Shown: positions 4,350 through 21,926 of the stretch, piece after piece | Layout of the letters: each line of letters starts with the position of its first letter | Position numbering within the stretch: position 1 is the stretch's first letter | Assembly: GCA_040235515.1 (NCBI GenBank) | Contig: JBECKX010000097.1 | Location: 1-21,926, forward strand | Origin: Candidatus Zixiibacteriota bacterium | GTDB lineage: Bacteria > Zixibacteria > MSB-5A5 > CAIYYT01 | DNA length: 21,926 bases | Direction of reading: 5' to 3' | The notes under the pieces: model-generated | Told to the model about the DNA's origin: nothing | Databases searched by the model: none | Seen by the model: the letters and a program-made list of their open reading frames with translations, nothing else | Program-made: the position numbers and the translations under genes

Positions 4350-4810
4350 TTACACCCCTACGCGGGTGGCAATCATCCGTAGGGGCTCAGCATGCTGAGC
4401 CCGGGCAACCGTGTCTGGCCCGGAGGATACACACCCCGTCCCCCGAGCTTGCCGCTGCACGTCAAGTTCGGGATCCACCCCTCTCGAGAGGGGAATTCAG
4501 GGAGGTCAGACATTCCTGTCTGAGGTCCAACCATCCGGGTGCCCCACCGCCTGCGGCGGGAACGATCCCCGGTCCGTGCGCGGAGTACGTCCTCGTGCTC
4601 CGCGGTACTCATTCAAGGACTCACACAGCGTGCCCCTACGCTCTCCCGATGTGTCCATCCTTCAAGCTGGAGACCGCAGGAGGTCAGAGATACCTGCCTG
4701 ACATCGCCCGCCTTGGCGGGCGAACAGCTTCACTCCGGCATGCGATACCCACAGGAGGCTTTCGATGTCAGTAAGCGCTCCGGCGTCATTTCCGCGCAGG
4801 CGGGAATCCA
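4350..4810. repeat. Intergenic cluster of multiple different palindromic REP-like elements
   Basis: cccctacg/cgtagggg (4355-4385); perfect 20-mer gggctcagcatgctgagccc (4383-4402); two-hairpin element (4428-4493); tcagaca-ttcc-tgtctga (4506-4523) with a degenerate copy at about 4679-4702; ggtgccccaccgcctgcggcggg (4538-4560); gcggagtacg-tcct-cgtgctccgc (4580-4603); gcccctacg (4632-4640); tcgcccgcc-tt-ggcgggcga (4704-4723). Confidence 0.85.
4785..4810. repeat. GTCATTCCCGCG.AGGCGGGAATCCA-type repeat (dRS3/RPE-like, 'WIPACAGMT')
   Basis: gtcatttccgcgcaggcgggaatcca differs by one base from the widespread consensus. The minus strand translates WIPACAEMT. Confidence 0.8.
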
Positions 4811-5036
4811 TGTCTTGTCGCCCGCTGCACCCTGAACGCACTGGGCGTCTGTGAATCTTTTCACAAATAATCGAAAAATCGAGACAAAGGCAACCGTTTT
4901 TTGACGAGGAAGGGTACGCGGCAAAGAAACTCGACAAAAAAAGCACTTTTACCTCCTGAGCTTCGGTGTATACTGTCATGTAACACTTCTCAGACTCAAG
5001 AAGCGGCCTTCTTCAATCAAAAAAGGAAGGAATCAG

Positions 5037-6347
5037 ATGACTCGGATAGGCCAAACCATTCTCATGTGCTGTGTGGCGGTGGCGCTTGCGATCCTCTCAT
5101 GCGAGGACAATACGATCAACAACTATTATCTGGCGGAAGATGGCTTCTTGCGTGGTCGAATTGCGCCCGCCGACTCAGGAGCAGTCGTTCTGACCGGTAC
5201 AACTGACGTTATGGTGAGTATCGATTCAAGCGGAAATTTCTTCATGAACGGGATTCAGCCGGGTAACTATGATGTAACTGTCTATCCGGCCAACTACTCG
5301 AAACGAGTGTTCGAGGATCGAATTATAGTGGCAGGCTCGGGACTGGACTTTGGCACAATCGCGGTAAACAAACTACCTTGGCCGATCCTGAATATTACTC
5401 CTTCGGAAGGTGCGACAGATGTCGAACTAGCAACCACATTCGCGATTCAAAGCTATGAGAGCCTGAACCTGGCGAGTCTTACAACGGGAGTGACCTTTGA
5501 TCCTCCACTCGATGGTGCCTGGCGTGAAGTTCTCCTTAGCAACGGCTACAACTACTACTTTGGTCTTCCGTACGGAACTTCAAGCCAGACGCGGATTCGC
5601 TTGCTACCCGGAACCAGCTACACAGTCAGCATCGACAAATCCATAACTAACGTTGTCGGTGGTTCTGCGACTGACGATTACAGTCAGTCTTTCACGGCGG
5701 AGCCGCTCCTTGTGACTCTCTACACAACGCCGGTACCGGGAACGCCGGTCAGCCTAAGGAGCTTCCACTTCGACTTGGGCTTCAACACCTGCGTGTCGGA
5801 GAACGCGGTAAACGAGGCCGTGAGAATTGAGCCGCCAATCGGTGGCTTATGGATAGGAGACAGAGCCTGTCAGGACAACCCCTACGAGATTGAGGATGGT
5901 TACACTGAGTTTCGCTTGTTCCCGTTCGTCAATAGCCTGCCTCCAAGCACCGAGTATATACTGACCGTTTCCGGAGGTGTAGATCTCTTAGAGAATGTGT
6001 CACTACCGCGGGACACTACATTCACCTTCGTTACTGAATCCCCTCAGATAATTTCATACAGCCCGACCTCCGGTTCGGTCGTCCAGTACTTGAGCTATGT
6101 TAACATTGACTTCAATACCTCGATGGACTCCACATCTGTTGCCGAGGCGTTTGCGCTTGAAGTCCTTGATGGTGATCCAGTCCCTGGCTCCTACCGCTGG
6201 TACAGCGACTACACAACCCTTCAGTTTGCACCGGATATTCCATTTCAGTTCGGAGTAGTGTATGTCTTCCGCGTGTCAACAGCAGCTCTCTCATTAGAGG
6301 GCGCGGCGATTGAGGATGACATCGAATCGTACTTCAGAGTTCGCTAG
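5037..6347 (+). CDS. Putative lipoprotein with an N-terminal carboxypeptidase-regulatory-like beta domain and tandem Ig-like (SbsA/Big_5-like) domains, 436 aa
   Basis: SD aaggaagg; lipobox ...LAILS-C; repeated 'P..G......I.FN..MD..SV..AF', 'L.P.T.YT.S' and 'F.F.T' motifs typical of Big_5 repeats. Confidence 0.75.
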   Translation: MTRIGQTILMCCVAVALAILSCEDNTINNYYLAEDGFLRGRIAPADSGAVVLTGTTDVMVSIDSSGNFFMNGIQPGNYDVTVYPANYSKRVFEDRIIVAGSGLDFGTIAVNKLPWPILNITPSEGATDVELATTFAIQSYESLNLASLTTGVTFDPPLDGAWREVLLSNGYNYYFGLPYGTSSQTRIRLLPGTSYTVSIDKSITNVVGGSATDDYSQSFTAEPLLVTLYTTPVPGTPVSLRSFHFDLGFNTCVSENAVNEAVRIEPPIGGLWIGDRACQDNPYEIEDGYTEFRLFPFVNSLPPSTEYILTVSGGVDLLENVSLPRDTTFTFVTESPQIISYSPTSGSVVQYLSYVNIDFNTSMDSTSVAEAFALEVLDGDPVPGSYRWYSDYTTLQFAPDIPFQFGVVYVFRVSTAALSLEGAAIEDDIESYFRVR

Positions 6348-6381
6348 GAGTATGACAGGACTCAAACTGATAGGAGGTAGC

Positions 6382-7698
6382 GTGCCGCGCCGTATCCTCA
6401 TTCCATTAGGGTGTTCAGTCACTATCTCTGCATTCCTGCTGTTGCTCTCATGCAGTGATGATGTGATCAACAATTACTATCCACCTGCAAGCGCTGCCAC
6501 CGCGAGGATATCAGGACAGCTTTATCCAGCTGACAGTGGATTAGTAGTCTTGGAGGGTGATACTACTATCGAAGTCAACATCAACTGGATTGGTGTCTTT
6601 CAGGCAGCAGGAATTCCGGAGGGCACTTACGACATTTTTGTTGTCCCGGCAAATCATGGTCGGAGGATATACAGGGACGTGTACATTAGCTCGGAACGGC
6701 CCTTCATTCAAGGCTATATCATTGTATCTGTCCTCCCGTGGCCCTTCTTTTATGAAACACCATCTGGAAACTCGACAATTTCTGACTTCCAAACCGAGAT
6801 AGAGATCGTCAGTTCCGAGCAACTAAACCTCGACGATTTGAAGTCCTTGAGCTATTTCGAACCAGAGATCGCAGGGGAATGGATAGAATCGGGTGGATCA
6901 TCGAATTTCGTCTATCAATATCTATCTACACTGGACGGAAGCCAGATATTCACCCTACCGCCAACAACGACATACACACTTCACATTGACAAGAGTGTCA
7001 GGACCGTTGATGGAAAGACACTTGACAGTGATGGAGCTTTGACATTTTCAACCGAGGACCTGGAGCTTCATCTTTCCGGGGATTTGACTAACAGAGGCAA
7101 TGTTGGAATTCTGGAGCCTGATCTGCGGATCTACTTCACGACCTGCGTTTCGGAAGCTGCGGTGAGGGAGGCTGTCACATTCGATCCGCCGATACCTGGA
7201 CTCTGGGTAGCTACAGGTTGCGGTGAGGATCTTTTTGATCTGCCTGATCCTTCATATTCGTTCAAGTACTTCATGTTCGAATCCACACTCCCGGCAGAGA
7301 AAGACTACACACTGTCGGTTTCTAAATCGATTGGCTTAGTCGCCGGTTCCCCGGTAGGCGGAGACTCGGTGTTTCATATTACGACTGAATCCTACGGGAT
7401 TATTGAAATATATCCGTCAGATCGCGGGACGATTCGCGGGCCCCGTTATGCCCATGTTGAATTCAATGCAGTGATGGATACCGCCTCGGTTGAGGCCTCA
7501 TTTTCGATTACGGACGTGGATGGCGAAGTCCTTCCCGGATGGCCACGCTGGGTGAATTCGAACAGAGGTTACCTTTACTACTTTGACGAACCACTGATAT
7601 CAAATTCGATTTATCGAATCGGGCTGACTACCGATGCAAAGACCGCCGAGGGAATGAATCTGACTAGGGAGTTTGAATCAATTTTCTTCACACCGTGA
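6382..7698 (+). CDS. Paralogous Ig-like-domain lipoprotein, about 438 aa
   Basis: GTG 6382 follows AGGAGG; lipobox LLLS-C. Colinear motifs are shared with the upstream gene (SC.D..INNYY, PADSG, V.PAN, LPWP, TCVSE.AV.EAV...PPI.GLW, FN..MD..SV...F). The start codon is uncertain. Confidence 0.75.
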   Translation: MPRRILIPLGCSVTISAFLLLLSCSDDVINNYYPPASAATARISGQLYPADSGLVVLEGDTTIEVNINWIGVFQAAGIPEGTYDIFVVPANHGRRIYRDVYISSERPFIQGYIIVSVLPWPFFYETPSGNSTISDFQTEIEIVSSEQLNLDDLKSLSYFEPEIAGEWIESGGSSNFVYQYLSTLDGSQIFTLPPTTTYTLHIDKSVRTVDGKTLDSDGALTFSTEDLELHLSGDLTNRGNVGILEPDLRIYFTTCVSEAAVREAVTFDPPIPGLWVATGCGEDLFDLPDPSYSFKYFMFESTLPAEKDYTLSVSKSIGLVAGSPVGGDSVFHITTESYGIIEIYPSDRGTIRGPRYAHVEFNAVMDTASVEASFSITDVDGEVLPGWPRWVNSNRGYLYYFDEPLISNSIYRIGLTTDAKTAEGMNLTREFESIFFTP

Positions 7699-9001: not shown

Positions 9002-11176
9002 ATGGCGAAGAAGGCAAACTCCACGGAAGTCCCCCTGGACAAACGGCTGATCTGGTCCGGTATCATCATCGTGCTGGCTCTGGCGGTCCGTCTGGTGTTC
9101 CTGTTCAACACCAGCGAAAGCACCGTGTTCGGATTTCTCAGCTACGACCGTCTCTACTACGAACAGATCGCCCAGCAATTCCTCGCAGGACAGCCATTCG
9201 GACCGGAAATCCTGTTTAAGCCACAGCTTTATCCGCTCTATGTCGGAGTTGTGCTTCAGTTGCTCGGTCGGGACCTTTTCCTCCCGCTGCTGATACAGGG
9301 GTTCCTCGGCGCCTTCTCCTGCGCACTGGTTTTCCTGATCGCGCTCCGCTTCTATTCCCTTAAGATTTCTGCTACAGCAGGCATCATCACCGCGCTCTAT
9401 GGGACTCTGATATACTATTCCGGAGAGTTGTTGCCGGTGACGCTGCTGATTTTCCTCAATCTGTCGGTAATCTATCTTCTGCTTCGGTACAATGACACCC
9501 GCAATCTCTGGTACGCTTTCTTTGCCGGACTGAGCCTCGGTTTTGCCGTGGCTGCAGGGCCATCATCGCTGCTGCTACTGGCGGCTATTTTGGTCTGGAT
9601 CTTCCGTCGACGCTCAAAGAGAAAACTCCCGCGCGGCAAAGAGGCTGCGATCGTCCTGGTTGGGGTGATGCTGGTTTTCACACCCTTCTGGTTGCGAGCC
9701 CTCACCAATGGTGGAGAGGAGGTTCCCTACGCTACCCACATCGGGCTGACCCTGGCGGCGGGGAACAACATCGATGCCAGAGGCAACACCATCAATCTGC
9801 CGCGAACAATTGCACCAACCGGATTCGACTATGATGAAATGGTTGAATTGGCGCAGCGAGCAAACCTGGGAGAACGGCCGCTTGACCAGCTCGGTAGCCT
9901 CTGGACCGGACAGGCCATCGGCTTCGCGCTTCACACCCCCGGCAAATGGCTTCTACTCGAATTGCGCAAGCTTGGCTACATCTTTATGGGCTATGAGAAT
10001 TGGCGCCACAAGCCGCTTTACTACTTCTCATCTCATTCGGATCTTCTTGGCTTCCTCCTCTGGGACAACCTGATCTCGTTTCCGTTCGGGGTCATCCTCC
10101 CGCTGGCCCTGATTCTCCTGTTTGCTCCGCGCTCCGAGAAACCGGGGCAGGGGCTCCTGCTTGGCTATGCCGCCGTAGGTGTAATCGTGCTGCTGGCTTC
10201 CTATGTCGTAGAAGGGCAACGATTGATCTTCATCCCCCCGGTGATTATCTGGGCCGCTGCCGGCCTCTGGACCTTGATCGACAGCTACCGGGAGAAACAA
10301 TTCAAGCGATTCTATAAGTTGGCAGTTGTGTTCGTGGTGGCTCTTGGAGTCAGCAACGGTCTCACGGCAATTCCCGGACTCTCACCGCGTGTGATCGATG
10401 AAGCAGTCGGGGAGGTGTACATCGCCAACGCCCTGATCTCATTGGAGCAATACCCGGAAGCTGAACAGCGCTTGCAGCGGGCGCTCCGGTACGATTCGCG
10501 CTCGGCATCCGCTAACATGGCGCTGGCAACGATCTATTCCCGGCGGGGACAGATCGAGGAAGCGATGAAGAGTTACCGGCGGGCAAGCCACCTCTCTCCC
10601 GAAAGTCAGCTCCCCAAGCAGGCGATCGCGAACCTGCTGCAGCAAATGAACAAGCTCGAAGAGCTGAACCACTACATTGTAGGGATCATCCGCGAAAACC
10701 CGAAAGAAAACTGGGCGCAGCAGTTCTATGCAGATATGCATGCGCGGATCGGTGAATATATGCAGGCTGCCGATATTCTGGAGCGGGCCTACCAGGCGGA
10801 TTCAACCTACTTTGACGCGATCCTGTTGAAGGCAAACGTCTACATTCAGGCCGATATGCGTGTGGAAGCTGAGAAGGAATTGAATCGTTTTCTGGAGTTC
10901 ATGCCGAACTCGATTGAAGCCCACGCGAATCTTGGTCAGGTCTATGCCCGGCAGCAGCGCTATGATCTGGCACTTAAACAATTCACGGCTGCGCGCGATG
11001 CGCAACCGTGGAATCCTGCGGCGTATTTCAACCTGGCGACCCTGAGTTATCAAATGGGCCAATTCAACCGTGCGCACGCTTATCTCGATACCGTCCTGAT
11101 CATCAATCCTGACTTTCCCAGCGTGGATGTGATGCGTGCGAAGATCGATTCCACTCAGGCGGCTTTTAAGAACTAG
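9002..11176 (+). CDS. Polytopic membrane glycosyltransferase (GT-C, PMT_2/ArnT-like) fused to C-terminal TPR repeats, 724 aa
   Basis: About 11-13 hydrophobic segments; first-loop 'D..YY...A' and 'F.P.LYP' motifs; C-terminal about 250 aa of TPRs (e.g. EAHANLGQVYARQQRYDLA..QF..A....P, AAYFNLATL). Confidence 0.75.
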   Translation: MAKKANSTEVPLDKRLIWSGIIIVLALAVRLVFLFNTSESTVFGFLSYDRLYYEQIAQQFLAGQPFGPEILFKPQLYPLYVGVVLQLLGRDLFLPLLIQGFLGAFSCALVFLIALRFYSLKISATAGIITALYGTLIYYSGELLPVTLLIFLNLSVIYLLLRYNDTRNLWYAFFAGLSLGFAVAAGPSSLLLLAAILVWIFRRRSKRKLPRGKEAAIVLVGVMLVFTPFWLRALTNGGEEVPYATHIGLTLAAGNNIDARGNTINLPRTIAPTGFDYDEMVELAQRANLGERPLDQLGSLWTGQAIGFALHTPGKWLLLELRKLGYIFMGYENWRHKPLYYFSSHSDLLGFLLWDNLISFPFGVILPLALILLFAPRSEKPGQGLLLGYAAVGVIVLLASYVVEGQRLIFIPPVIIWAAAGLWTLIDSYREKQFKRFYKLAVVFVVALGVSNGLTAIPGLSPRVIDEAVGEVYIANALISLEQYPEAEQRLQRALRYDSRSASANMALATIYSRRGQIEEAMKSYRRASHLSPESQLPKQAIANLLQQMNKLEELNHYIVGIIRENPKENWAQQFYADMHARIGEYMQAADILERAYQADSTYFDAILLKANVYIQADMRVEAEKELNRFLEFMPNSIEAHANLGQVYARQQRYDLALKQFTAARDAQPWNPAAYFNLATLSYQMGQFNRAHAYLDTVLIINPDFPSVDVMRAKIDSTQAAFKN

Positions 11177-11191
11177 GCAGTTAATCCATCA

Positions 11192-13204
11192 CTACTGACA
11201 ACTACCACAAGGCGGCGGTCCGCCTCCGAAAATGTAGTTAATCAGAAACACAGCGTCGCCGATCGAGATCGAGCCGCTGCAATCGGCATCCCCGCTCAGC
11301 AGCGGACTTGGCGCCGGACCTCCCCCAAAGATGTAGTTGATCAGGAAAACAGCATCGCCGATACTGATCGCCGAACTACCATCGGAATCCCCAGCAACGT
11401 ACGGGGTACCGCCATCATGGCGCAGGAAATTCACCCCACCATACTCCTCACCCGCGAATATATCGAGATCACCGTCTGAATCGATGTCGGCAAAGCTGAG
11501 CGCAGGTCGCGCGCCAACATCACCACCCGGGATGATATCGGGCTGTTCGAGCAGCGTGGTGGAATCAGGGAAACTCGACGCACCGGCATCGTTTCTGAAC
11601 CAGGTCGCAGAAACATCACGTTTACCGACCAGCAAATCGTAGTCACCATCATTATCCCAGTCAATCGCCGTTGGAATCGTGAAGTCACGTTGTTCGATCT
11701 TGATCAGCTTGTTGGTAACCAGAGTAAGTGTGGGCGAACCGGCACTCCCGGTATTCTCGTAGAGAAGTATGTTTGCTTTGCTGTTAAAATCCCACTCGCC
11801 AACTACCAGGTCAAGTAGCCCATCACCATTCAAGTCGACCGGTGCCGGCACCGCGAGCTGATCGGTCTTTATCCCTGCCAGCTGGTTGGTTTCCTGGATC
11901 CCTACAAATGCGCACGCATCGCCATCATTGCGCCAATACTCGATTCTACCCAGCTCGGTGCCGATCAAAAGATCCGGATCGCCATCGGAATCCCAATCCA
12001 CCACCGCCGGAATCGCCGTCAGGCCGACATCGATCCCGCCGAACATATCAGACACCAGCTCGAACACCGGGTCGGTTCGTGTGCCGATATTCTCGAAATA
12101 CTTGATTGTCCCATCCCCGGCGCCAACCAGCAAGTCGTAGTCGGAGTCTCCGTCCATGTCAGCCACGGCAGGAAATGTGCTGCGCCCGAAATCAAGCTGA
12201 TCGATCAGGTTCTGGGTTTCCTCAACGAATGTCGCGGCGGTTGCGTTTCCCGTATTCCTCAGAAGCCGCAGGTTGTTGATGTTTTGCCCGTTCGCCGCGC
12301 CAAGGATCATATCGAAGTCGCCATCAGCATCAATGTCCGCCATCGGCACATGATTGTGGCCGAATGTCTCGATGGGCAGATATGTCTCAGACACATAGCC
12401 CAGGTCTGACGTCGCCGCACTACCATCATTCTGAAAGTAGTAGAGATTGGTATTGAAGAGATCGCCCCAGAATAGGTCGAGGTCGTTATCATTGTCGATA
12501 TCACTGAAGTAGATCGCGCTGAAACCATGATGTGGTTCTGCGGGCTTGCCGAGCCCGCTGCCACCTCCCGGAAACGCGAGTATGCTGTCATAGGCTGACG
12601 AGATCAGGCTGAAGCTGGCATTCACAGAATCACCGTCATTGCGATAGAAGACCAGTCGGCCGTTGGTGTCACCGATGAAGAAATCAAGATCGGCGTCGCC
12701 ATCGATATCTGCGAACGCAGGAGTATTATTGACACCGGTAGCAAAGCCGGCATACGCAGTATCGATCTCCACGAAGGTAATCGTTGGCCCTACCGATTCA
12801 TTGCGATAGTAGATCACGCCGTTACTGAGATTGTCGCAGAACAGATCAAGGTCGCCGTCGCCGTCAATATCTGCCAGTAGATGCCATTTGCCGATGTTCA
12901 GCCCGGCAAACCTGTCGGTCATAACCTGCCAGTCAGGAACCATCGCCGTACCTGTGTTTCGCAGATAGTTGAGCTTCCCGGTGTCCTCGCCGATGAACAG
13001 ATCGACCAGCCCGTCACCATCAAAATCATGCAACGAAGGCTTTGGGCTGTTGAGGCCGCCCAGAAATGGAATCGCCAAAGTGTCGCCATCCACGATCACC
13101 GGGAAAGGGGCGAACTCCTGCGTGTACTGCGCTAACAGAAGCGTTGGAAAGAGGAGAAACACCGCTGGAATCAGTATCAGAATCGAGATCGTTGTCTTGC
13201 TCAT
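11192..13204 (-). CDS. Secreted FG-GAP/VCBS repeat beta-propeller protein with C-terminal dockerin-like domain, 670 aa
   Basis: Signal peptide MSKTTISILILIPAVFLLFPTLLLA-Q from ATG 13204; about 10 'D.DGDGD.DL..G...G...Y..N.G' repeats; C-terminal duplicated GDxDxS.xISIGDAVFLINYIFGGGP.P. Confidence 0.85.
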   Translation of the reverse strand: MSKTTISILILIPAVFLLFPTLLLAQYTQEFAPFPVIVDGDTLAIPFLGGLNSPKPSLHDFDGDGLVDLFIGEDTGKLNYLRNTGTAMVPDWQVMTDRFAGLNIGKWHLLADIDGDGDLDLFCDNLSNGVIYYRNESVGPTITFVEIDTAYAGFATGVNNTPAFADIDGDADLDFFIGDTNGRLVFYRNDGDSVNASFSLISSAYDSILAFPGGGSGLGKPAEPHHGFSAIYFSDIDNDNDLDLFWGDLFNTNLYYFQNDGSAATSDLGYVSETYLPIETFGHNHVPMADIDADGDFDMILGAANGQNINNLRLLRNTGNATAATFVEETQNLIDQLDFGRSTFPAVADMDGDSDYDLLVGAGDGTIKYFENIGTRTDPVFELVSDMFGGIDVGLTAIPAVVDWDSDGDPDLLIGTELGRIEYWRNDGDACAFVGIQETNQLAGIKTDQLAVPAPVDLNGDGLLDLVVGEWDFNSKANILLYENTGSAGSPTLTLVTNKLIKIEQRDFTIPTAIDWDNDGDYDLLVGKRDVSATWFRNDAGASSFPDSTTLLEQPDIIPGGDVGARPALSFADIDSDGDLDIFAGEEYGGVNFLRHDGGTPYVAGDSDGSSAISIGDAVFLINYIFGGGPAPSPLLSGDADCSGSISIGDAVFLINYIFGGGPPPCGSCQ

Positions 13205-13389
13205 TTGCTCGGTATCCAATCGTAGTGTGGCCGGATCCTCCTCGCGCCGACTGGCGCCGGTCCCGGGAGCTGGAGTGATCGCTGACCTTATTGTTGTAGC
13301 ATCGGTCGAAAGTAGAACTCGCGTAAGCTTGCTTTTTGTCCATGAGACACGCGTGCCAGGAGTGAGGCTGGCGGAAAAATCGCGAGTGA

Positions 13390-15667
<2,278 letters not shown>

Positions 15668-15680
15668 TAAGGATTTGAGT

Positions 15681-15941
15681 TTGGTCACCAAAACGGTTAA
15701 AATTACGAATAAATTGGGGCTGCACGCTCGACCCTCCGCCAAGGTGGTCCAGACTGCCAGCCAATTCCAGTCAGATATTATGCTGGAAAAGGAAGGCCTG
15801 GAGGTGAATGGCAAATCGATCATGGGGGTCATGATGCTCGCTGCCGAAGCGGGCTCGGAAGTAACCGTAAAGGCGACCGGAAGTGATGAGGAGGAGGCAG
15901 CAGACGCCCTCGCAAAGCTACTCAGTTCGAAATTTGACTGA
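15681..15941 (+). CDS. ptsH: PTS phosphocarrier protein HPr, 86 aa
   Basis: A TTG start at 15681 after AAGGA puts the His of GLHARP at position 15. The regulatory Ser motif NGKSIMGVMML is present. Confidence 0.95.
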   Translation: MVTKTVKITNKLGLHARPSAKVVQTASQFQSDIMLEKEGLEVNGKSIMGVMMLAAEAGSEVTVKATGSDEEEAADALAKLLSSKFD

Positions 15942-16076
15942 TGACAAATATCTCTATCTATACCGCGCCACAGGTGTGCACCCAAATAGTCGTCAGATTC
16001 CGTTCCTGCCAAGACCAGTCGCCTCACTCAGAATGATTTTTTTCCGTAACTGGATTGTAAGAATTGTAAGACCAGT

Positions 16077-17867
16077 ATGACTTCAGCAGCTGCCAGGACA
16101 AAATCTTCCCATCCGCGCGAAATCCGACTCCGCGGTGCGATAGCCTCTCCCGGAATAGCCATAGCCAGGTGCTTCAAACACGACGTCGGAATCCGCATTG
16201 TGGAAAAACGGAAAATCAGTGCAGATGCTGTCGAGGGAGAAATTCAGCGGCTGCGTGACGCGATGTTGAGCGCCCGAGAGGAAATCCGGCAGATTCAGTT
16301 TGAAGCGGATCGCGTTGTGGGAGACGCGATGGCGAAGATTTTCGAAGCGCAATTGATGATCCTCGACGATGAGACCTTCATCAACTCCGTCGCCGTTGAA
16401 ATTGCCAGGCAGAAGCTCAACGCCGAATTCGTCTATCAACGTCAGATCCAGCGAAACCTCAAGTCGCTGCGAAAATCGAACGACTCGTATCTCAAAGAGA
16501 TGGCGAACGATATCAACGCCACCGCAGCAAAAGTCTTCGGCTTTCTGGTAGGACGACACAGCAACAAACTGGTCAATAACAAGAACAAGATCGCCCTGGC
16601 GGAGGAGTTCTCCCCCGGCGAGATCGTGTTGATCAACAAGTATGGGATTCCCGGCTATGCCACGCAGGTGGGGGGATCAACATCCCACATGGCCCTCATC
16701 GCCAAATCATTGTCGATTCCCGCCGTTGTCGGCGTTTCTGGATTGCTGGAACGGTGCCCCGATGGCGCGACCGTGATCGTTGACGGCAATCGCGGTGAAG
16801 TGATCGTCCATCCAAGCGAGGAGACCCTCTCTGAGTACAAAGCGGAGAGGCGCAAGCGCCGTTCATATCTCTCGAAAGAATTGCAGGGGCTTGGTAAACT
16901 CGAGCACACGACGAAAGATGGTACCGAAGTCGAGATACTCGCCAATCTGGAGATCCCGACAGACGTCGATCAATCACTCGCTTCGGGAAATATCGGTGTC
17001 GGCCTGTATCGCACCGAGTTCTTCTACCTGGCCAGCATGAAATTTCCGAGTGAAGCGGATCAGACCAGGATTTATTCGGAGATCGCACGCACCTTCTTCC
17101 CGAATCCGGTCACGATGCGCACGTTCGATCTCGGCTCCGACAAGACTACCGGTGAGTATCACCAGATCGATGAGGATAACCCCGCAATGGGTTGGCGCGG
17201 AATCAGATTCCACCTCGATTTGCCCCGGGTCTTCCGCACACAGATCAAGGCACTGCTGCGAGCCAGTGAATTTCGCAATATTCGTATCATGCTGCCGATG
17301 GTCTCTTCGCCGTCAGAACTCGCTAAGGCAAGACGGATCATCAATTCCGTCAAGCGTGAATTGAAGGCGGAGAAAATCAAGTACGATCCTGATATCGAGG
17401 TCGGAATTATGGTGGAAGTACCGGCGACTGCGATCATGGCTGAGTCGCTGGCTCGGCACGCCGACTTCTTCTCGGTTGGCACCAACGACCTGATCCAGTA
17501 CGCCCTAGCCGTCGATCGCGGCAACAAGAAAGTCGCCAAACTCTATCGCGAGTATCATCCCGGCGTATTGCGTTTGGTCGACATGACCATCAAGGCAGGC
17601 ATCAAAACCGGTACACCCGTGTCGCTCTGTGGCGAGATGGCCGGCAAATCGCTCTCGGTGCCATTGCTGCTCGGCATGGGGCTGCGCAGTTTTTCGGTGA
17701 CCCCGCCGCGGGTACCCAGTCTGATCAAGATCATCAACAGACTCGACATCTCTGCCTGCGAGGAGCTAACCGCGCGCGTCTCAGAGTTGGCTACCGCCGA
17801 AAAAATCGAAGCACTTCTGCTCGATTGGTTTACCAGGAACGTGGGCGAGAAGTACCTGGAGGGTTAA
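16077..17867 (+). CDS. ptsI: Phosphoenolpyruvate-protein phosphotransferase (PTS enzyme I), 596 aa
   Basis: G..ASPGIA, phospho-His TSH, GVGLYRTEF, RTFDLG.DK, NP.MGWRGIR, MVEVPA, SVGTNDL.QY and LCGEMAG. There is no N-terminal GAF domain. Confidence 0.95.
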   Translation: MTSAAARTKSSHPREIRLRGAIASPGIAIARCFKHDVGIRIVEKRKISADAVEGEIQRLRDAMLSAREEIRQIQFEADRVVGDAMAKIFEAQLMILDDETFINSVAVEIARQKLNAEFVYQRQIQRNLKSLRKSNDSYLKEMANDINATAAKVFGFLVGRHSNKLVNNKNKIALAEEFSPGEIVLINKYGIPGYATQVGGSTSHMALIAKSLSIPAVVGVSGLLERCPDGATVIVDGNRGEVIVHPSEETLSEYKAERRKRRSYLSKELQGLGKLEHTTKDGTEVEILANLEIPTDVDQSLASGNIGVGLYRTEFFYLASMKFPSEADQTRIYSEIARTFFPNPVTMRTFDLGSDKTTGEYHQIDEDNPAMGWRGIRFHLDLPRVFRTQIKALLRASEFRNIRIMLPMVSSPSELAKARRIINSVKRELKAEKIKYDPDIEVGIMVEVPATAIMAESLARHADFFSVGTNDLIQYALAVDRGNKKVAKLYREYHPGVLRLVDMTIKAGIKTGTPVSLCGEMAGKSLSVPLLLGMGLRSFSVTPPRVPSLIKIINRLDISACEELTARVSELATAEKIEALLLDWFTRNVGEKYLEG

Positions 17868-18929
17868 ATGCCGATCACTGTTGCAGCTATGAAACGAATC
17901 GATCCCGATGATATGTATGGTAAAATCGTCAATTTCCCGAAGCAGTTTCGCGATGGCTTCGATTTAGCTGTCAGCGGCGATCTGTCACAATTGAAGCGTT
18001 CTCGTTTCGACAGCATCGTGGTGCTCGGAATGGGGGGGTCGGCGATCGGCGGCGATATCCTGCGCTCCTATCTCGCAGATGAGGTGTCGATCCCGATTAT
18101 CATCAACCGCAACTATGGCTTGCCGAAGTTCGTGTCGGAGAACACGCTGGTAATCGCATCATCATATTCGGGCAACACCGAAGAGACTCTCTCCGCATTC
18201 GCTGAAGCAAAGGCACGCAACGCAAAGATTTTCGTCGCCAGCACCGGCGGCAAACTGGGTGAACTTGCCAGATCCGGCGGTTTGCCTCACGTAATCCTCC
18301 CTGCCGGCCTGCAGCCGCGCGCCGCGCTCGGTTACTCATTCGGCCCGCTGCTCAACCTGATGGCGAAGCTGGAGTTGTGTGCCGACCAGGCGCAGATCGT
18401 CGATCAAGCGACTCACTTTCTGCAGGAGCGCTCACCGAAGCTCGTGATCGAAAACGACTCAGACAATGCTGCCAGAGAGTTGGCGGAAAAGTTGAAAGAG
18501 AAGATCGCCATCATCTATGCCGGTGCCGACTGCTACGATACGATCGCAGTCCGCTTCAAGGGTCAAATCTGCGAGAACGCCAAGCACCTCGCCTTCGCCA
18601 ATATCTGTCCGGAGTTCAACCATAACGAGATTGTCGGCTATGAATATCCCGAAGAGTTGCTGAAGAAGTTGCACGTCGTGTTTCTTGCCGGTCCGGCTGA
18701 TTCTGTCGGGGTAACCAACAGATTCAAGATCATCAATGAGATTCTCAGCGAACGCGGAGTGCCGGCAACAACGATCCGCGCCGAGGGCCCAAATCGCCTC
18801 GCTGAGATATTCTCACTTGTCCAATTCGGGGATTTTACCAGTTATTATCTGGCATTGCTGAACGAAACCGATCCGTCGCCCGTAGAAGTTATCAACCGAC
18901 TAAGATCCTCATTGGAGAAAATGAAGTGA
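17868..18929 (+). CDS. Bifunctional phosphoglucose/phosphomannose isomerase (SIS-domain PGI/PMI), 353 aa
   Basis: GMGGSAIGG, SYSGNTEET, QPRAA, Q..ENAK, PE.NHNE and C-terminal S.YLA.L...DP.PV..I motifs. Confidence 0.9.
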   Translation: MPITVAAMKRIDPDDMYGKIVNFPKQFRDGFDLAVSGDLSQLKRSRFDSIVVLGMGGSAIGGDILRSYLADEVSIPIIINRNYGLPKFVSENTLVIASSYSGNTEETLSAFAEAKARNAKIFVASTGGKLGELARSGGLPHVILPAGLQPRAALGYSFGPLLNLMAKLELCADQAQIVDQATHFLQERSPKLVIENDSDNAARELAEKLKEKIAIIYAGADCYDTIAVRFKGQICENAKHLAFANICPEFNHNEIVGYEYPEELLKKLHVVFLAGPADSVGVTNRFKIINEILSERGVPATTIRAEGPNRLAEIFSLVQFGDFTSYYLALLNETDPSPVEVINRLRSSLEKMK

Positions 18930-19819
18930 TTCGACGTGCCGCTGCAGCGGTAGTGCCCATACTCGTCCTGATACTGGTGGTAGCCGTCCTGTCCGTCGAC
19001 GCCTTCGCGCAGACCTCGCCCGACGCCGCCGACACCGGTTGGTTTCTGACCAAGCGCACCAATGCACTGGTGATCCTGTTGTTGTTTTCTGCGGCAATCG
19101 TCTACTACACACGTCGTGCCCGCAAAGGAGACAAGCTCTTCGTCCGCAAGATCGCCGGCCTCGAAGCTGTTGAGGAGGCAGTCGGCCGCGCCACGGAGAT
19201 GGGACGCCCGGTCCTGTTCATTCCCGGCATCGATGAGATCGACCGGATCGATACACTCGCGGGCCTTTCGATTCTGGGACGGGTTGCAAGAATCACCGCT
19301 CGCTATGAATCCCCCCTTTACGTGCCGGTGCGTTACCCGATGGTGCTGGCCGCGGCATCGGAAGTGGTACAGCAGTCCTACTCCGTCGAAGGGAAACTGG
19401 AATCGCACAATCAGGATATGGTGCGCTATGTCGCGGGCGAGCAGTTCGCATTTACAGCCACCGTCAACGGCTACATGATGCGCGAACGTCCGGCAGCCAA
19501 CATCTACATGGGTGCGTTCTTCGCCGAATCACTCCTGCTGGCAGAAACCGGTAACGCCGCCGGCTCGATTCAGATCGCCGGTACCGCTCAACCGGAACAG
19601 CTACCCTTCTTCATAGCGGCGTGCGACTATACGCTGATGGGGGAGGAATTATTCGCTGCCTCAGCCTATCTTTCGCACGAGCCGATCATGCTCGGCGGGT
19701 TGAAAGGGCAGGACCTGATCAAGGTGCTCATAGTCATCGCAATCGTACTCGGCGCTATTCTGGTAACTTCCAACGGTAGTGCCGGCAACTGGATATCAAA
19801 CCTCTTCGAGATTCGCTAG
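18926..19819 (+). CDS. Uncharacterised membrane protein, DUF6754-like, 297 aa
   Basis: GTGA overlap with the pgi/pmi stop; signal-like N-terminus (..AFA-Q), a TM helix, a soluble domain (R.IAGLEA.EEAVGRATEMGRP; G.F.AESL.LAE.G...G.IQIAGT; QLPFF..ACDY.L.GEE.FAA.AY), and a C-terminal TM helix. The family name is recalled from motifs, not from a search. Confidence 0.7.
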   Translation: MIRRAAAAVVPILVLILVVAVLSVDAFAQTSPDAADTGWFLTKRTNALVILLLFSAAIVYYTRRARKGDKLFVRKIAGLEAVEEAVGRATEMGRPVLFIPGIDEIDRIDTLAGLSILGRVARITARYESPLYVPVRYPMVLAAASEVVQQSYSVEGKLESHNQDMVRYVAGEQFAFTATVNGYMMRERPAANIYMGAFFAESLLLAETGNAAGSIQIAGTAQPEQLPFFIAACDYTLMGEELFAASAYLSHEPIMLGGLKGQDLIKVLIVIAIVLGAILVTSNGSAGNWISNLFEIR

Positions 19820-19834
19820 AGCAAAATTCGCCTG

Positions 19835-20491
19835 ATGAAAACCGCCGTACCTGTCATTATTGCTTTTCTCTCCGGTCTCGCCATGATTCTGGCGTTCTTC
19901 CTTAATCCTGAGAAATTCGGTGATATCGAAGGGGAGATGCTCCAGTGGGCGACAATCATCGCAGGCTTCACTCTGCTTCTCGGAGTAGTCTCCATCGTGC
20001 GCGTCAACTGGCGCTCGGTGAAGCGACTCGAAAGCGGGTGGTTCAATAAAGCTGCGCTTCTCTTCGCACTCTTCATCACCGCGATTCCCGCTGTTATCCC
20101 GGTGAGTTGGTCACCACTCTTCGGCCGCGATAACGGATCGATCTATGATTGGCTCTTCACCTATCCCAATGCCCAGATGCAGTCAACCATGTTTGCGATG
20201 CTGGCCTTCTACATTGCCTCGGCAGCCTACAGGGCCTTCCGCGCCAGAACGACCGAGGCGACCCTGCTCCTGCTGACCGCGGTTATTGTGATGCTCTGGC
20301 GCATTCCGATGGGTGAGTCGGTTTTTGCGGCGATCAGCCCCGACCTGCCGGACCTGATCAACACCTACGTGATGGGAGGCGTCAATGTCGCCGTCCAGCG
20401 CGGTATTATCATCGGCGGGGCACTTGGTGCAGCAGCTACGGCGCTGCGCGTCATCCTCGGTATCGAACGCACATATATGGGGAGAAACTAG
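19835..20491 (+). CDS. Uncharacterised polytopic membrane protein, 218 aa
   Basis: About 6 hydrophobic segments; motifs TMFAMLAFYIASAAYRAFRAR..EA.LLL and RGI.IG.ALG.....LR.ILG.ER.Y. Confidence 0.8.
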   Translation: MKTAVPVIIAFLSGLAMILAFFLNPEKFGDIEGEMLQWATIIAGFTLLLGVVSIVRVNWRSVKRLESGWFNKAALLFALFITAIPAVIPVSWSPLFGRDNGSIYDWLFTYPNAQMQSTMFAMLAFYIASAAYRAFRARTTEATLLLLTAVIVMLWRIPMGESVFAAISPDLPDLINTYVMGGVNVAVQRGIIIGGALGAAATALRVILGIERTYMGRN

Positions 20492-20494
20492 ATC

Positions 20495-21328
20495 GTGAAT
20501 ATCTGGGAGAAACTGGGAACGCTCGATCGCCGCTGGGTCTATCTCGCAGTCGGTATCATGGTGATCATCCCGCTCTTCGTTCCGCTAAAGCTTCCGATCG
20601 GTATCACCCCGGAAGCCCGCGCCCTCTACAATTCCGTGGAGGCGCTCCCCGATAGCTCGGTCGTACTGCTGACCTTTGACTACTATGCTTCCACCGTTGC
20701 CGAGAGTCAGCCGATCTCCGTCGCCGCCCTGCATCACCTCTTCCGCAAGAACATGAAGATCGTCACGATGACGACCATCCCGCTCGGCGGTCCGACGATC
20801 GCCCAGAACGTGATGGCCGAAATGGCGGAGATGTACGGGAAGAGCTATGGCACCGACTATGTCAATCTCGGCTACAAAGCGAACTACACCGCCGTCCTCA
20901 AAGGTATGGGGATCGCGATCGAAAACATCTATCCCACCGATCAGCATGGCACGCCGCTGGATCAGCTCCCGTTGATGCAGAAGGTGAAGAACTACGCCGA
21001 CATCGACTACATTTTTGTCGTGGCGGACAACGCGATTCTCGATTACTGGGTTTCGATCGTCAATGCTCAATATGGTAAGCCGATCGGGGCGGGAACTACC
21101 GCGGTCATGGCTCCGAAATTCTATAGTTTCGTGCAGTCAGGACAAATGGCTGGATTGCTGGGCGGCATGAAAGGCGCCGCAGAGTACGAGTTGCTCGTCG
21201 GCAAGCCGGACAAGGCGATTCTGGGGATGAACTCCCAGTCGCTCGTACACCTGCTGATCATAGCTTTCGTCATAGTCGGAAACATCGCTCTTTTCACTTC
21301 AGGCAGGAGACAGCGGATCGATGTTTGA
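20495..21328 (+). CDS. Uncharacterised protein with N- and C-terminal TM anchors and a central soluble alpha/beta domain, 277 aa
   Basis: GTG start 3 nt after the previous stop, GGGAG upstream; motifs DRRW.Y, YG.DYVNLGY, GQ..GLLGGMKGAAEYE and GM.SQS..HL.II. Confidence 0.8.
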   Translation: MNIWEKLGTLDRRWVYLAVGIMVIIPLFVPLKLPIGITPEARALYNSVEALPDSSVVLLTFDYYASTVAESQPISVAALHHLFRKNMKIVTMTTIPLGGPTIAQNVMAEMAEMYGKSYGTDYVNLGYKANYTAVLKGMGIAIENIYPTDQHGTPLDQLPLMQKVKNYADIDYIFVVADNAILDYWVSIVNAQYGKPIGAGTTAVMAPKFYSFVQSGQMAGLLGGMKGAAEYELLVGKPDKAILGMNSQSLVHLLIIAFVIVGNIALFTSGRRQRIDV

Positions 21329-21926
21329 TTGGACTATCATCGGGACCTGGGTAGCAGGATTTTTCACCCTCTGCCTCTTTTCATTTCTCTATAAGGACAA
21401 TCCTTTCTATCGACTGGCGGAGCATATCTTCGCCGGGCTATCGGCGGGCTACTATATTGGCTTGATCTACCACTCGGTAATCCTGGCGCAGCTCGTGGAA
21501 CCGATCGGCGAACACTGGGCGCAGGCGGCTGCCCCGGGACCCGATACGGGTTACCACATCATGAAGGTAGCCTTCCTGTTGTTTGCCGGACTGATGGGTG
21601 TGCTGATGTTCGCACGCTTCTTCCCCAAAGTTTCCTGGATTTCCCGCTACCCGCTGGCATTCGTGATGGGGAACACCGCCGGTATCGAGATCATGTCGCG
21701 TCTGCACGGCATGGTGCTGCCGCAGATGCGCTCGACGTTCGTCGATCTGGGAGTCTCCTTCGGACCGCTGCTGTTGAATCTCGTGATCCTCTTCGGCGTC
21801 TTAACCACGTTGATCTATTTCTATTTCTCGAAAGAGCATAAGGGGCTGCTTGGCTTCAGTGCCCGCGTCGGCATCTACTTCATAATGATTGCTTTCGGCG
21901 CCCACTTCGGTTACACTGTCATGGCG
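21321..21926 (+). CDS. Uncharacterised polytopic membrane protein, 3'-truncated by the window end (at least 202 aa)
   Basis: Absent from the ORF track because it has no stop. ATG 21321 follows AGGAG and overlaps the previous gene by 8 nt. It is open to the end: MFDWTIIGTWVAGFFTLCLFSFLYKDNPFYRLAEHIFAGLSAGY...SWISRYPLAFVMG...TLIYFYFSKEHKG...RVGIYFIMIAFGAHFGYTVMA. Confidence 0.85.
   Translation, partial: MFDWTIIGTWVAGFFTLCLFSFLYKDNPFYRLAEHIFAGLSAGYYIGLIYHSVILAQLVEPIGEHWAQAAAPGPDTGYHIMKVAFLLFAGLMGVLMFARFFPKVSWISRYPLAFVMGNTAGIEIMSRLHGMVLPQMRSTFVDLGVSFGPLLLNLVILFGVLTTLIYFYFSKEHKGLLGFSARVGIYFIMIAFGAHFGYTVMA

Follow-up and report, generated by a model that had tools for sequence, protein, structure and literature searches.

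At the end of a 21,926-nucleotide contig of a Candidatus Zixiibacteriota bacterium (JBECKX010000097.1), four contiguous genes, here called A, B, C and D, encode membrane proteins, and the question is which machine they form and what powers it. The window, that is, the whole 21,926-nucleotide stretch analysed, is the entire contig C138, so that gene D is cut off by the contig end; a full-length orthologue, 61% identical to the window copy, has 211 amino acids. A preliminary description, made from the sequence alone, took the four genes for a stand-alone secondary transporter or trans-membrane signalling unit. This proposal is weakened by the finding that the module tracks an actin-fold ATPase gene, G, and three further genes, E, F and K. 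On genomic grounds there is a strong case that the genes belong to an undescribed membrane machine of several components, and a moderate case that this machine would act as an ATP-driven importer.

A four-gene module kept in order

The reading frames and their spacing were confirmed (gaps of 15, 3 and -8 nt for A/B, B/C and C/D; Table 1), as were the richness in glycine and alanine (18-22% in A-D) and the absence of Walker A and CxxCH motifs in a motif scan of A-D. Cysteine counts are 1/0/0/1 in A/B/C/D. As a refinement, A carries one conserved cysteine, Cys197 (alignment A2; window 19622-19624), which lies in an FFxAACDYT motif and is kept in 86 of 91 homologues. The label "DUF6754-type set" holds for A, a full-length member of DUF6754 (PF20539; E 1.8e-115, 384.9 bits against a gathering cut-off of 27, profile positions 3-250 of 257), a family without assigned function that spans A only. 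It does not extend to the other genes: B, C and D matched no Pfam family at E 0.01, none of A-D had an NCBIfam match below E 0.1, and B, C, D, E, F and K exceeded no family cut-off.

The arrangement is not a product of chance, because the same order is found in four further copies in the genome and in other phyla. Three of the five modules of the host genome stand in tandem on contig C148, between genes for succinyl-CoA ligase, 2-oxoacid oxidoreductase and malate dehydrogenase and a gene that we take to be PPDK-like, and one stands on contig C15 beside an opposite-strand sugar-type ATP-binding cassette (ABC) operon. The SucD-like and PPDK-like proteins on C148 (1438-2766 and 20801-23953; L021, L022) carry long Lys/Ala/Ser/Thr-rich, histone-like tails. 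DUF6754 was detected in 41/41 related genomes (host included), mostly with five matches, and in 0/14 control genomes.

The co-occurrence and adjacency that the preliminary description had proposed to measure were borne out. Across 99 loci, 20 of them hand-picked, partly with the position of G already known, A was followed by B-C-D for 117 of 135 A genes by script and for three more by eye, which amounts to 120 of the 125 evaluable genes once ten lying too close to a locus end are excluded. Of the five exceptions, three are A genes without recognised B-C-D, one has an insertion separating B from C, and one falls at a masked gap. In L046 (11423-13715), a DNA methyltransferase and an anti-sigma antagonist are inserted between B and C. 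An apparently long A "fusion" in L097 was discarded, its sequence spanning a masked gap. Natural C-D fusions, joined by an extra transmembrane helix (TM), were also found (P0255, P0259), one of them from a Planctomycetaceae cluster. C alone was represented by 5,505 clusters at 50% identity (E<=0.001). One relative, P0154, comes from a named Planctomicrobium, a cultured carrier. The sampled genomes were bacterial, with no archaea among them.

Table 1. Features of the window
Feature	Position	Strand	Description
Gene A	18926-19819	+	297 aa; DUF6754 protein, short form
Gene B	19835-20491	+	218 aa; 6-TM protein
Gene C	20495-21328	+	277 aa; TM, periplasmic Rossmann-like domain, TM
Gene D	21321->21926	+	202 aa, open at 3' end; 6-TM protein
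HPr, PTS enzyme I, phosphoglucose/phosphomannose isomerase	15624..18929	+	Pfam, NCBIfam; context, outside the system
FG-GAP repeat protein	11192-13426	-	dockerin tail
PMT-like membrane protein	9002-11176	+	TPRs
Two tandem Big_5 proteins	5037-7698	+	lipoprotein-like
Intergenic stretches	~82-560, 4400-4980		spurious translations

An actin-fold ATPase that accompanies the module

The genome contains a single PF13941 gene, G (C60:9817-11706, about 613 aa), which is adjoined by K, a gene of 376 aa with weak barrel-sandwich and KOW matches, a weak RraA match (E 0.11) and a weak RnfC_N match (E 5e-4). The small genes E and F are situated on C142. G matches the Pfam MutL family PF13941 at E 1e-130 and retains the phosphate-1, phosphate-2 and adenosine motifs TDCGSTTTK, VDIGGATTD and GSGGVL (DxG phosphate plus GxGG); by these motifs it is a predicted ATPase of the actin/Hsp70 fold (ASKHA). 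Both PF13941 and these motifs are shared with GlmL/MutL (NF040745, TIGR01319) and Or-4 (NF040744). G is judged not to be a true GlmL, since it scores below all three NCBIfam cut-offs (NF040745 232<475, TIGR01319 172<204, NF040744 222<600) and tblastn at E 1e-3 found no match to glutamate mutase E (GlmE) in the host genome. A control GlmL (L204), which adjoins mutase E, passes NF040745 and TIGR01319. The neighbours of G are K and membrane genes, not a mutase.

A and long G occur together almost without exception. The related genomes have both in 41/41 cases, one with only a fragment of G. In the phylum of G041 (n=125), 114 genomes have both, 10 neither and one A only, with one A being a weak fragment; in the phylum of G042 (n=251), the counts are 40 with both and 211 with neither. 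Five of these 211 gave only weak GlmL-type matches, and the two that were fetched resemble ordinary GlmL loci, one of them NCBIfam-confirmed. In the phylum of G049 (n=121), 114 have both, six neither and one G only, with the best matches mostly on separate contigs. Over these four lineages, 2 of 538 genomes are discordant for A and long G. In a fifth, small phylum, A was present in 15/15 genomes, in two of which G was examined. Genomes carry one to ten modules and mostly a single G, as in the host genome with five modules and one G. G is 71% identical over 20 aligned rows compared with 38-56% for the membrane subunits, the alignments being of different depth.

In 26 of 79 genome loci, A has G or K at a distance of no more than 10 kb, but this holds for 0/24 of the closest orthologues of the window copy. 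In several phyla the module shares one operon with E, F, G and K. The gene order is E-F-G-K-A-B-C-D at loci whose titles mostly name Eisenbacteria, and A-B-C-D-E-F-G-K at loci from the phylum of G042. A second paralogue is a G-K fusion in 5/5 such regions fetched.

Several variants of these partner loci were seen. The second, diverged G-K fusion (~870-1050 aa; L197-L201, L217, L224) has intact ATPase motifs and occurs commonly in the G041 and G049 phyla; its gene stands immediately upstream of the A-B-C-D module in L224. An exported protein of ~250 aa is encoded between G and K in several loci (L061:1472-2290, L084:2943-3698, L071:15428-16150); two of these proteins terminate in a TM and a basic tail, and one is DUF6134. 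L181 and L182, which belong to a single clade within the G042 phylum, have four to six additional genes between D and E, unannotated and without Pfam match. A suspected F-G fusion was unconfirmed on checking.

Predicted topology and fold

Topology was derived from positive-inside K+R counts over 91-96 homologues, with TM limits set manually from hydropathy and models. The alternation of anchored soluble proteins with 6-TM proteins, as first described, holds and is refined: A has two TMs and a signal peptide predicted by inspection of its sequence, C has two TMs, and the soluble domains of both are anchored at both ends. A is predicted to have an external N-terminus and a cytoplasmic domain (K+R 1.4 before and 4.6 after TM1), and C to have both termini inside and its domain outside (K+R 3.4 before TM1, 3.8 after TM2). 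B would have six TMs with both termini inside (93 rows), and D six TMs with the N-terminus outside, opposite to B, which agrees with the extra linker TM of the C-D fusions. The predictions thus suggest a mirrored layout, with A and C, and likewise B and D, in opposite orientation.

The AlphaFold models of A and C (each pLDDT 94, pTM 0.88) follow one common layout, in which a TM and a helix are followed by six strand-helix units and a second TM (C has a short insert in addition), and both align to common Rossmann-like templates over matching ranges, including 1kjn (A: Z 9.6, rmsd 3.4, 133 aligned; C: Z 9.7, rmsd 3.7, 139 aligned). The best VIA-align match of A is 5w8x (Z 10.2, rmsd 3.2, 127 aligned) and that of C is 1kjn; no template stands clearly above the others for either protein, which does not imply a new fold. 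Foldseek, proposed earlier as a check, gave no match for A or C at E<=0.001. A PDB sequence search with A, B, D, G and K returned nothing for A, D and G, one chance match for B and weak matches for K, and the ESM Atlas gave only unnamed clusters among those listed for C and no usable named match for B. RCK/KTN domains are among the fold matches (A: 3fwz, Z 9.4, rmsd 4.0, 127 aligned; C: 3l4b, Z 8.8, rmsd 3.6, 127 aligned), tied at Z 8-9.4 with glycosyltransferases, sirtuins and SDRs.

Given the opposite predicted orientations and the layout and templates shared by A and C, it is plausible that CD arose from AB by an ancient duplication and inversion, but profile comparison detected no homology, so that this origin is unproven. 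A likeness between A and C seen by eye in motifs of the last strands was not clearly better than in shuffled controls. D is partly built of repeated helical hairpins (hairpin 1 vs 2: hhalign probability 72%, E 3.5e-5); of a three-fold hairpin repeat, only hairpins 1/2 in D were significant and none in B. A prediction of the B+C+D+A complex, with D taken from an orthologue in another genome since the window D is truncated, returned "no answer" at a score of 0.74 (A-replaced controls 0.00 and 0.00, C-replaced control 0.66) and is not used as evidence here.

A is the most conserved subunit (31 invariant columns in 91 rows), and its cytoplasmic domain is the most conserved portion of the membrane part; D has conserved polar residues in or beside TMs, such as an invariant D-N and E. 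The outer face is variable: many A homologues carry an extra outward N-terminal domain before TM1 (Fn3 or a BamB/PQQ-like propeller), and the outer loop of B after TM3 has large insertions in homologues (FG-GAP, WD40, FHA or a second C-type domain), although most outer extensions of A and B homologues matched no family. In P0125-P0127 and P0129, an entire C-type soluble domain lies inside this loop of B.

Comparison with known systems

The tests run place the A-B-C-D system outside the ABC, energy-coupling factor (ECF), tripartite ATP-independent periplasmic (TRAP) and Rnf/Nqr families at the level of sequence, as the preliminary description had proposed for the first three. The window proteins have no EcfT, S-component or ABC permease family in Pfam, and no TRAP, ECF or ABC permease family was found in B or D apart from weak TMD0_ABC matches in 12 of 93 B members (best E 6e-4). 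DctM/DctQ/DctP and TctABC of the TRAP and tripartite tricarboxylate transporters were matched neither by the four window proteins nor by 93 D members, and were absent from the 25 families shown, out of 29, for 93 B members.

In Group II ECF transporters, one cytoplasmic energiser is shared by several exchangeable modules. The copy numbers of G and A-B-C-D suggest a similar economy, although the present system lacks both a P-loop ABC ATPase and any Pfam match to EcfT or an S-component, and its module would be a four-subunit mirror arrangement with soluble domains on both faces. In the diol/glycerol dehydratase reactivase, according to PMC7674605, an Hsp70-like ATPase and a swivelling domain act on an alpha/beta partner subunit and pry the partner subunits apart. 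G and K may echo this pair; the likeness of K is weak and at the sequence level, and their proposed target would be a membrane complex in place of a B12 enzyme. RCK/KTN potassium channels and transporters likewise place a Rossmann-like domain beside TM helices, as in A and C, but TrkA_N was not matched in Pfam, the A consensus lacks GxGxxG after strand 1, and the C domain is predicted to be extracellular. A search of open-access literature, judged by the titles and abstract openings listed, yielded no description of DUF6754 or of a four-protein system, and nothing linking glutamate mutase L or the actin-like ATPase to a membrane complex or transporter. The A-B-C-D system is apparently unstudied.

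Proposed mechanism and alternative explanations

The chance is somewhat below even, in our estimate, that the system is an importer whose several exchangeable membrane modules are all driven by a common ATPase. The eight genes A, B, C, D, E, F, G and K would form one system, with A-B-C-D as its membrane part, a mirror-arranged AB/CD carrier in the inner membrane. Inverted-repeat architecture is established among carriers, and the opposite orientations of A/C and B/D together with the same secondary-structure order in A and C fit such a design. G with its partner K would dock on the conserved cytoplasmic domain of A and spend ATP to power the conformational cycle of the carrier, one G-K pair serving all paralogous modules like a shared ECF energiser, and cargo would be selected by the outer domains of A, B and C, which are variable. 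Docking and coupling are suggested by the mirrored module, the conservation of A, the copy number of G and precedents among chaperones, MutL/GlmL being described as a reactivating chaperone in PMC4682846. The cargo would probably be organic nutrients, with amino acids or peptides weakly favoured.

More tentatively, the modules may belong to a class of primary active transporters run by an actin/Hsp70-fold ATPase and not by an ABC, P-type or rotary motor, in which several mirror-built A-B-C-D modules would share a single G-K motor and which may import peptides or other polymers into widespread uncultured sediment bacteria. To our knowledge, an actin-fold ATPase powers none of the transporters characterised so far.

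Several observations weigh against import by an ATP-driven carrier. The evidence is genomic throughout and contains no direct indication of transport, the neighbours of the modules point to no single cargo, and scanning of the outer domains revealed no substrate-binding-protein family. Homology was undetected between A and C and between B and D (profile comparison probability 3% and 0.2%). A is separated from B-C in G178 and G184; two of the three A genes without recognised B-C-D were checked, and B and C stand together elsewhere in the same genome. The pairwise identities of the four subunits are correlated (r 0.80-0.84, 118 modules), which speaks for the four as a unit but is expected of any co-inherited operon. 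Kinship inflates the co-absence counts, as do single-operon contigs that draft assemblies lack: the split of 40 versus 211 may reflect one or few clades, and the six small genomes without both A and G may be one lineage. The same gene set kept in different gene orders is therefore the stronger argument. Finally, near-universal presence in some phyla suits a housekeeping envelope machine equally well.

Such a machine, acting on macromolecules by ATP-driven protein export, insertion, unfolding or envelope remodelling, is the first alternative to consider, though an improbable one. It would account for the interaction folds among the outer additions (Fn3, BamB/PQQ-like, FG-GAP and WD40 propellers, FHA), for the presence in 41/41, 15/15 and 114/121 genomes of some phyla, for the location of modules in housekeeping operons, and for the searches in which plasmids gave no A and viral contigs no G; the reactivase-type ATPases introduced above also remodel protein complexes (PMC7674605). 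The presence of one to ten modules for a mostly single G is better suited to cargo-specific modules, and the annotated loci have no consistent secreted substrate, pilin or outer-membrane channel as a neighbour.

It is improbable to a similar degree that A-B-C-D works on its own as an ion-coupled carrier or as a gated channel, with inverted pseudo-symmetry, which G-K would only regulate, assemble or reset. The mirror topology and the conserved polar residues at TMs, such as D-N and E of D, would fit such a device, and the description of the relative MutL/GlmL is that of a reactivating chaperone, not a motor (PMC4682846). Gating domains of the RCK/KTN type do recur in the fold matches of A and C, but these tie with many unrelated Rossmann folds. 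The module is kept without G in just 1 of 538 genomes (A only), and G is more conserved than the membrane subunits, in alignments of different depth; both points weigh against this alternative.

It is distinctly unlikely that the module is a trans-membrane sensor whose outer domains bind a signal and through A switch a G-K ATPase acting on cytoplasmic targets. Soluble domains on both membrane faces, the variability of the outer ones and the weak KOW and RraA-like matches of K would fit a sensor, but no kinase, cyclase or DNA-binding output domain was found in A, B, D, E, F, G or K (Pfam/NCBIfam), and sixteen TMs would exceed the need of most sensors. An Rnf/Nqr-like redox or ion-pumping complex, suggested by the weak RnfC_N match of K (E 5e-4), by B and D as a 6-TM pair of opposite orientation like NqrD/E and by an apbE gene immediately 3' of D (L218:13045-14097), is very improbable. 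The inverted 6-TM subunits of Rnf/Nqr complexes carry conserved cysteine pairs, but B has no cysteine column at >=25%, D has a single one (Cys in 27/93 rows), the four window proteins match no Rnf or Nqr family, and apbE was seen at one locus only.

Genomic context and cargo

The tabulation of neighbours proposed in the preliminary description gave, over the annotated loci, a mixed picture. In the window copy, phosphotransferase system (PTS) and phosphoglucose isomerase (PGI) genes precede the module; at loci of this type, a nucleotidyltransferase, MetK and AhcY come next. The isomerase gene overlaps A by 4 nt, and the HPr, enzyme I and isomerase genes are probably co-transcribed with A-B-C-D; genes matching them in size and order, as judged by size only, also lie upstream of A in several orthologous loci. 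A 5'-truncated metK, with ahcY, starts at one end of contig C38. Since orthologous loci carry both genes after D, C138 and C38 probably flank one assembly gap. Other modules adjoin tricarboxylic acid (TCA) cycle genes, GAPDH-PGK, glycine cleavage genes, one OPT and one SSF transporter. The PTS/PGI neighbours might suggest a sugar-specific role, which we reject since the contexts of other copies are unrelated, and the glycine cleavage, OPT and SSF neighbours are no commoner than glycolytic, TCA, PTS or S-adenosylmethionine-cycle genes. The OPT gene overlaps D (L227:5450-7591), and an NfeD/SPFH pair lies between tandem modules in L233:13765-15119.

Elsewhere in the window, the spurious translations of the two intergenic stretches resemble those of what we take to be short palindromic REP-like repeats. 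An RNA search listed no RNA holder, and promoter and terminator counts were near the chance level.

Implications

The system is nearly universal in several large, mostly uncultured phyla and has no assigned function. Its G matches the family of a B12-enzyme helper, yet no glutamate mutase was found in the host genome. If G powers the modules, this would be a new coupling of ATP to transport, and the metabolic reconstructions of these groups would change. The single-operon versions make the system testable by heterologous expression.

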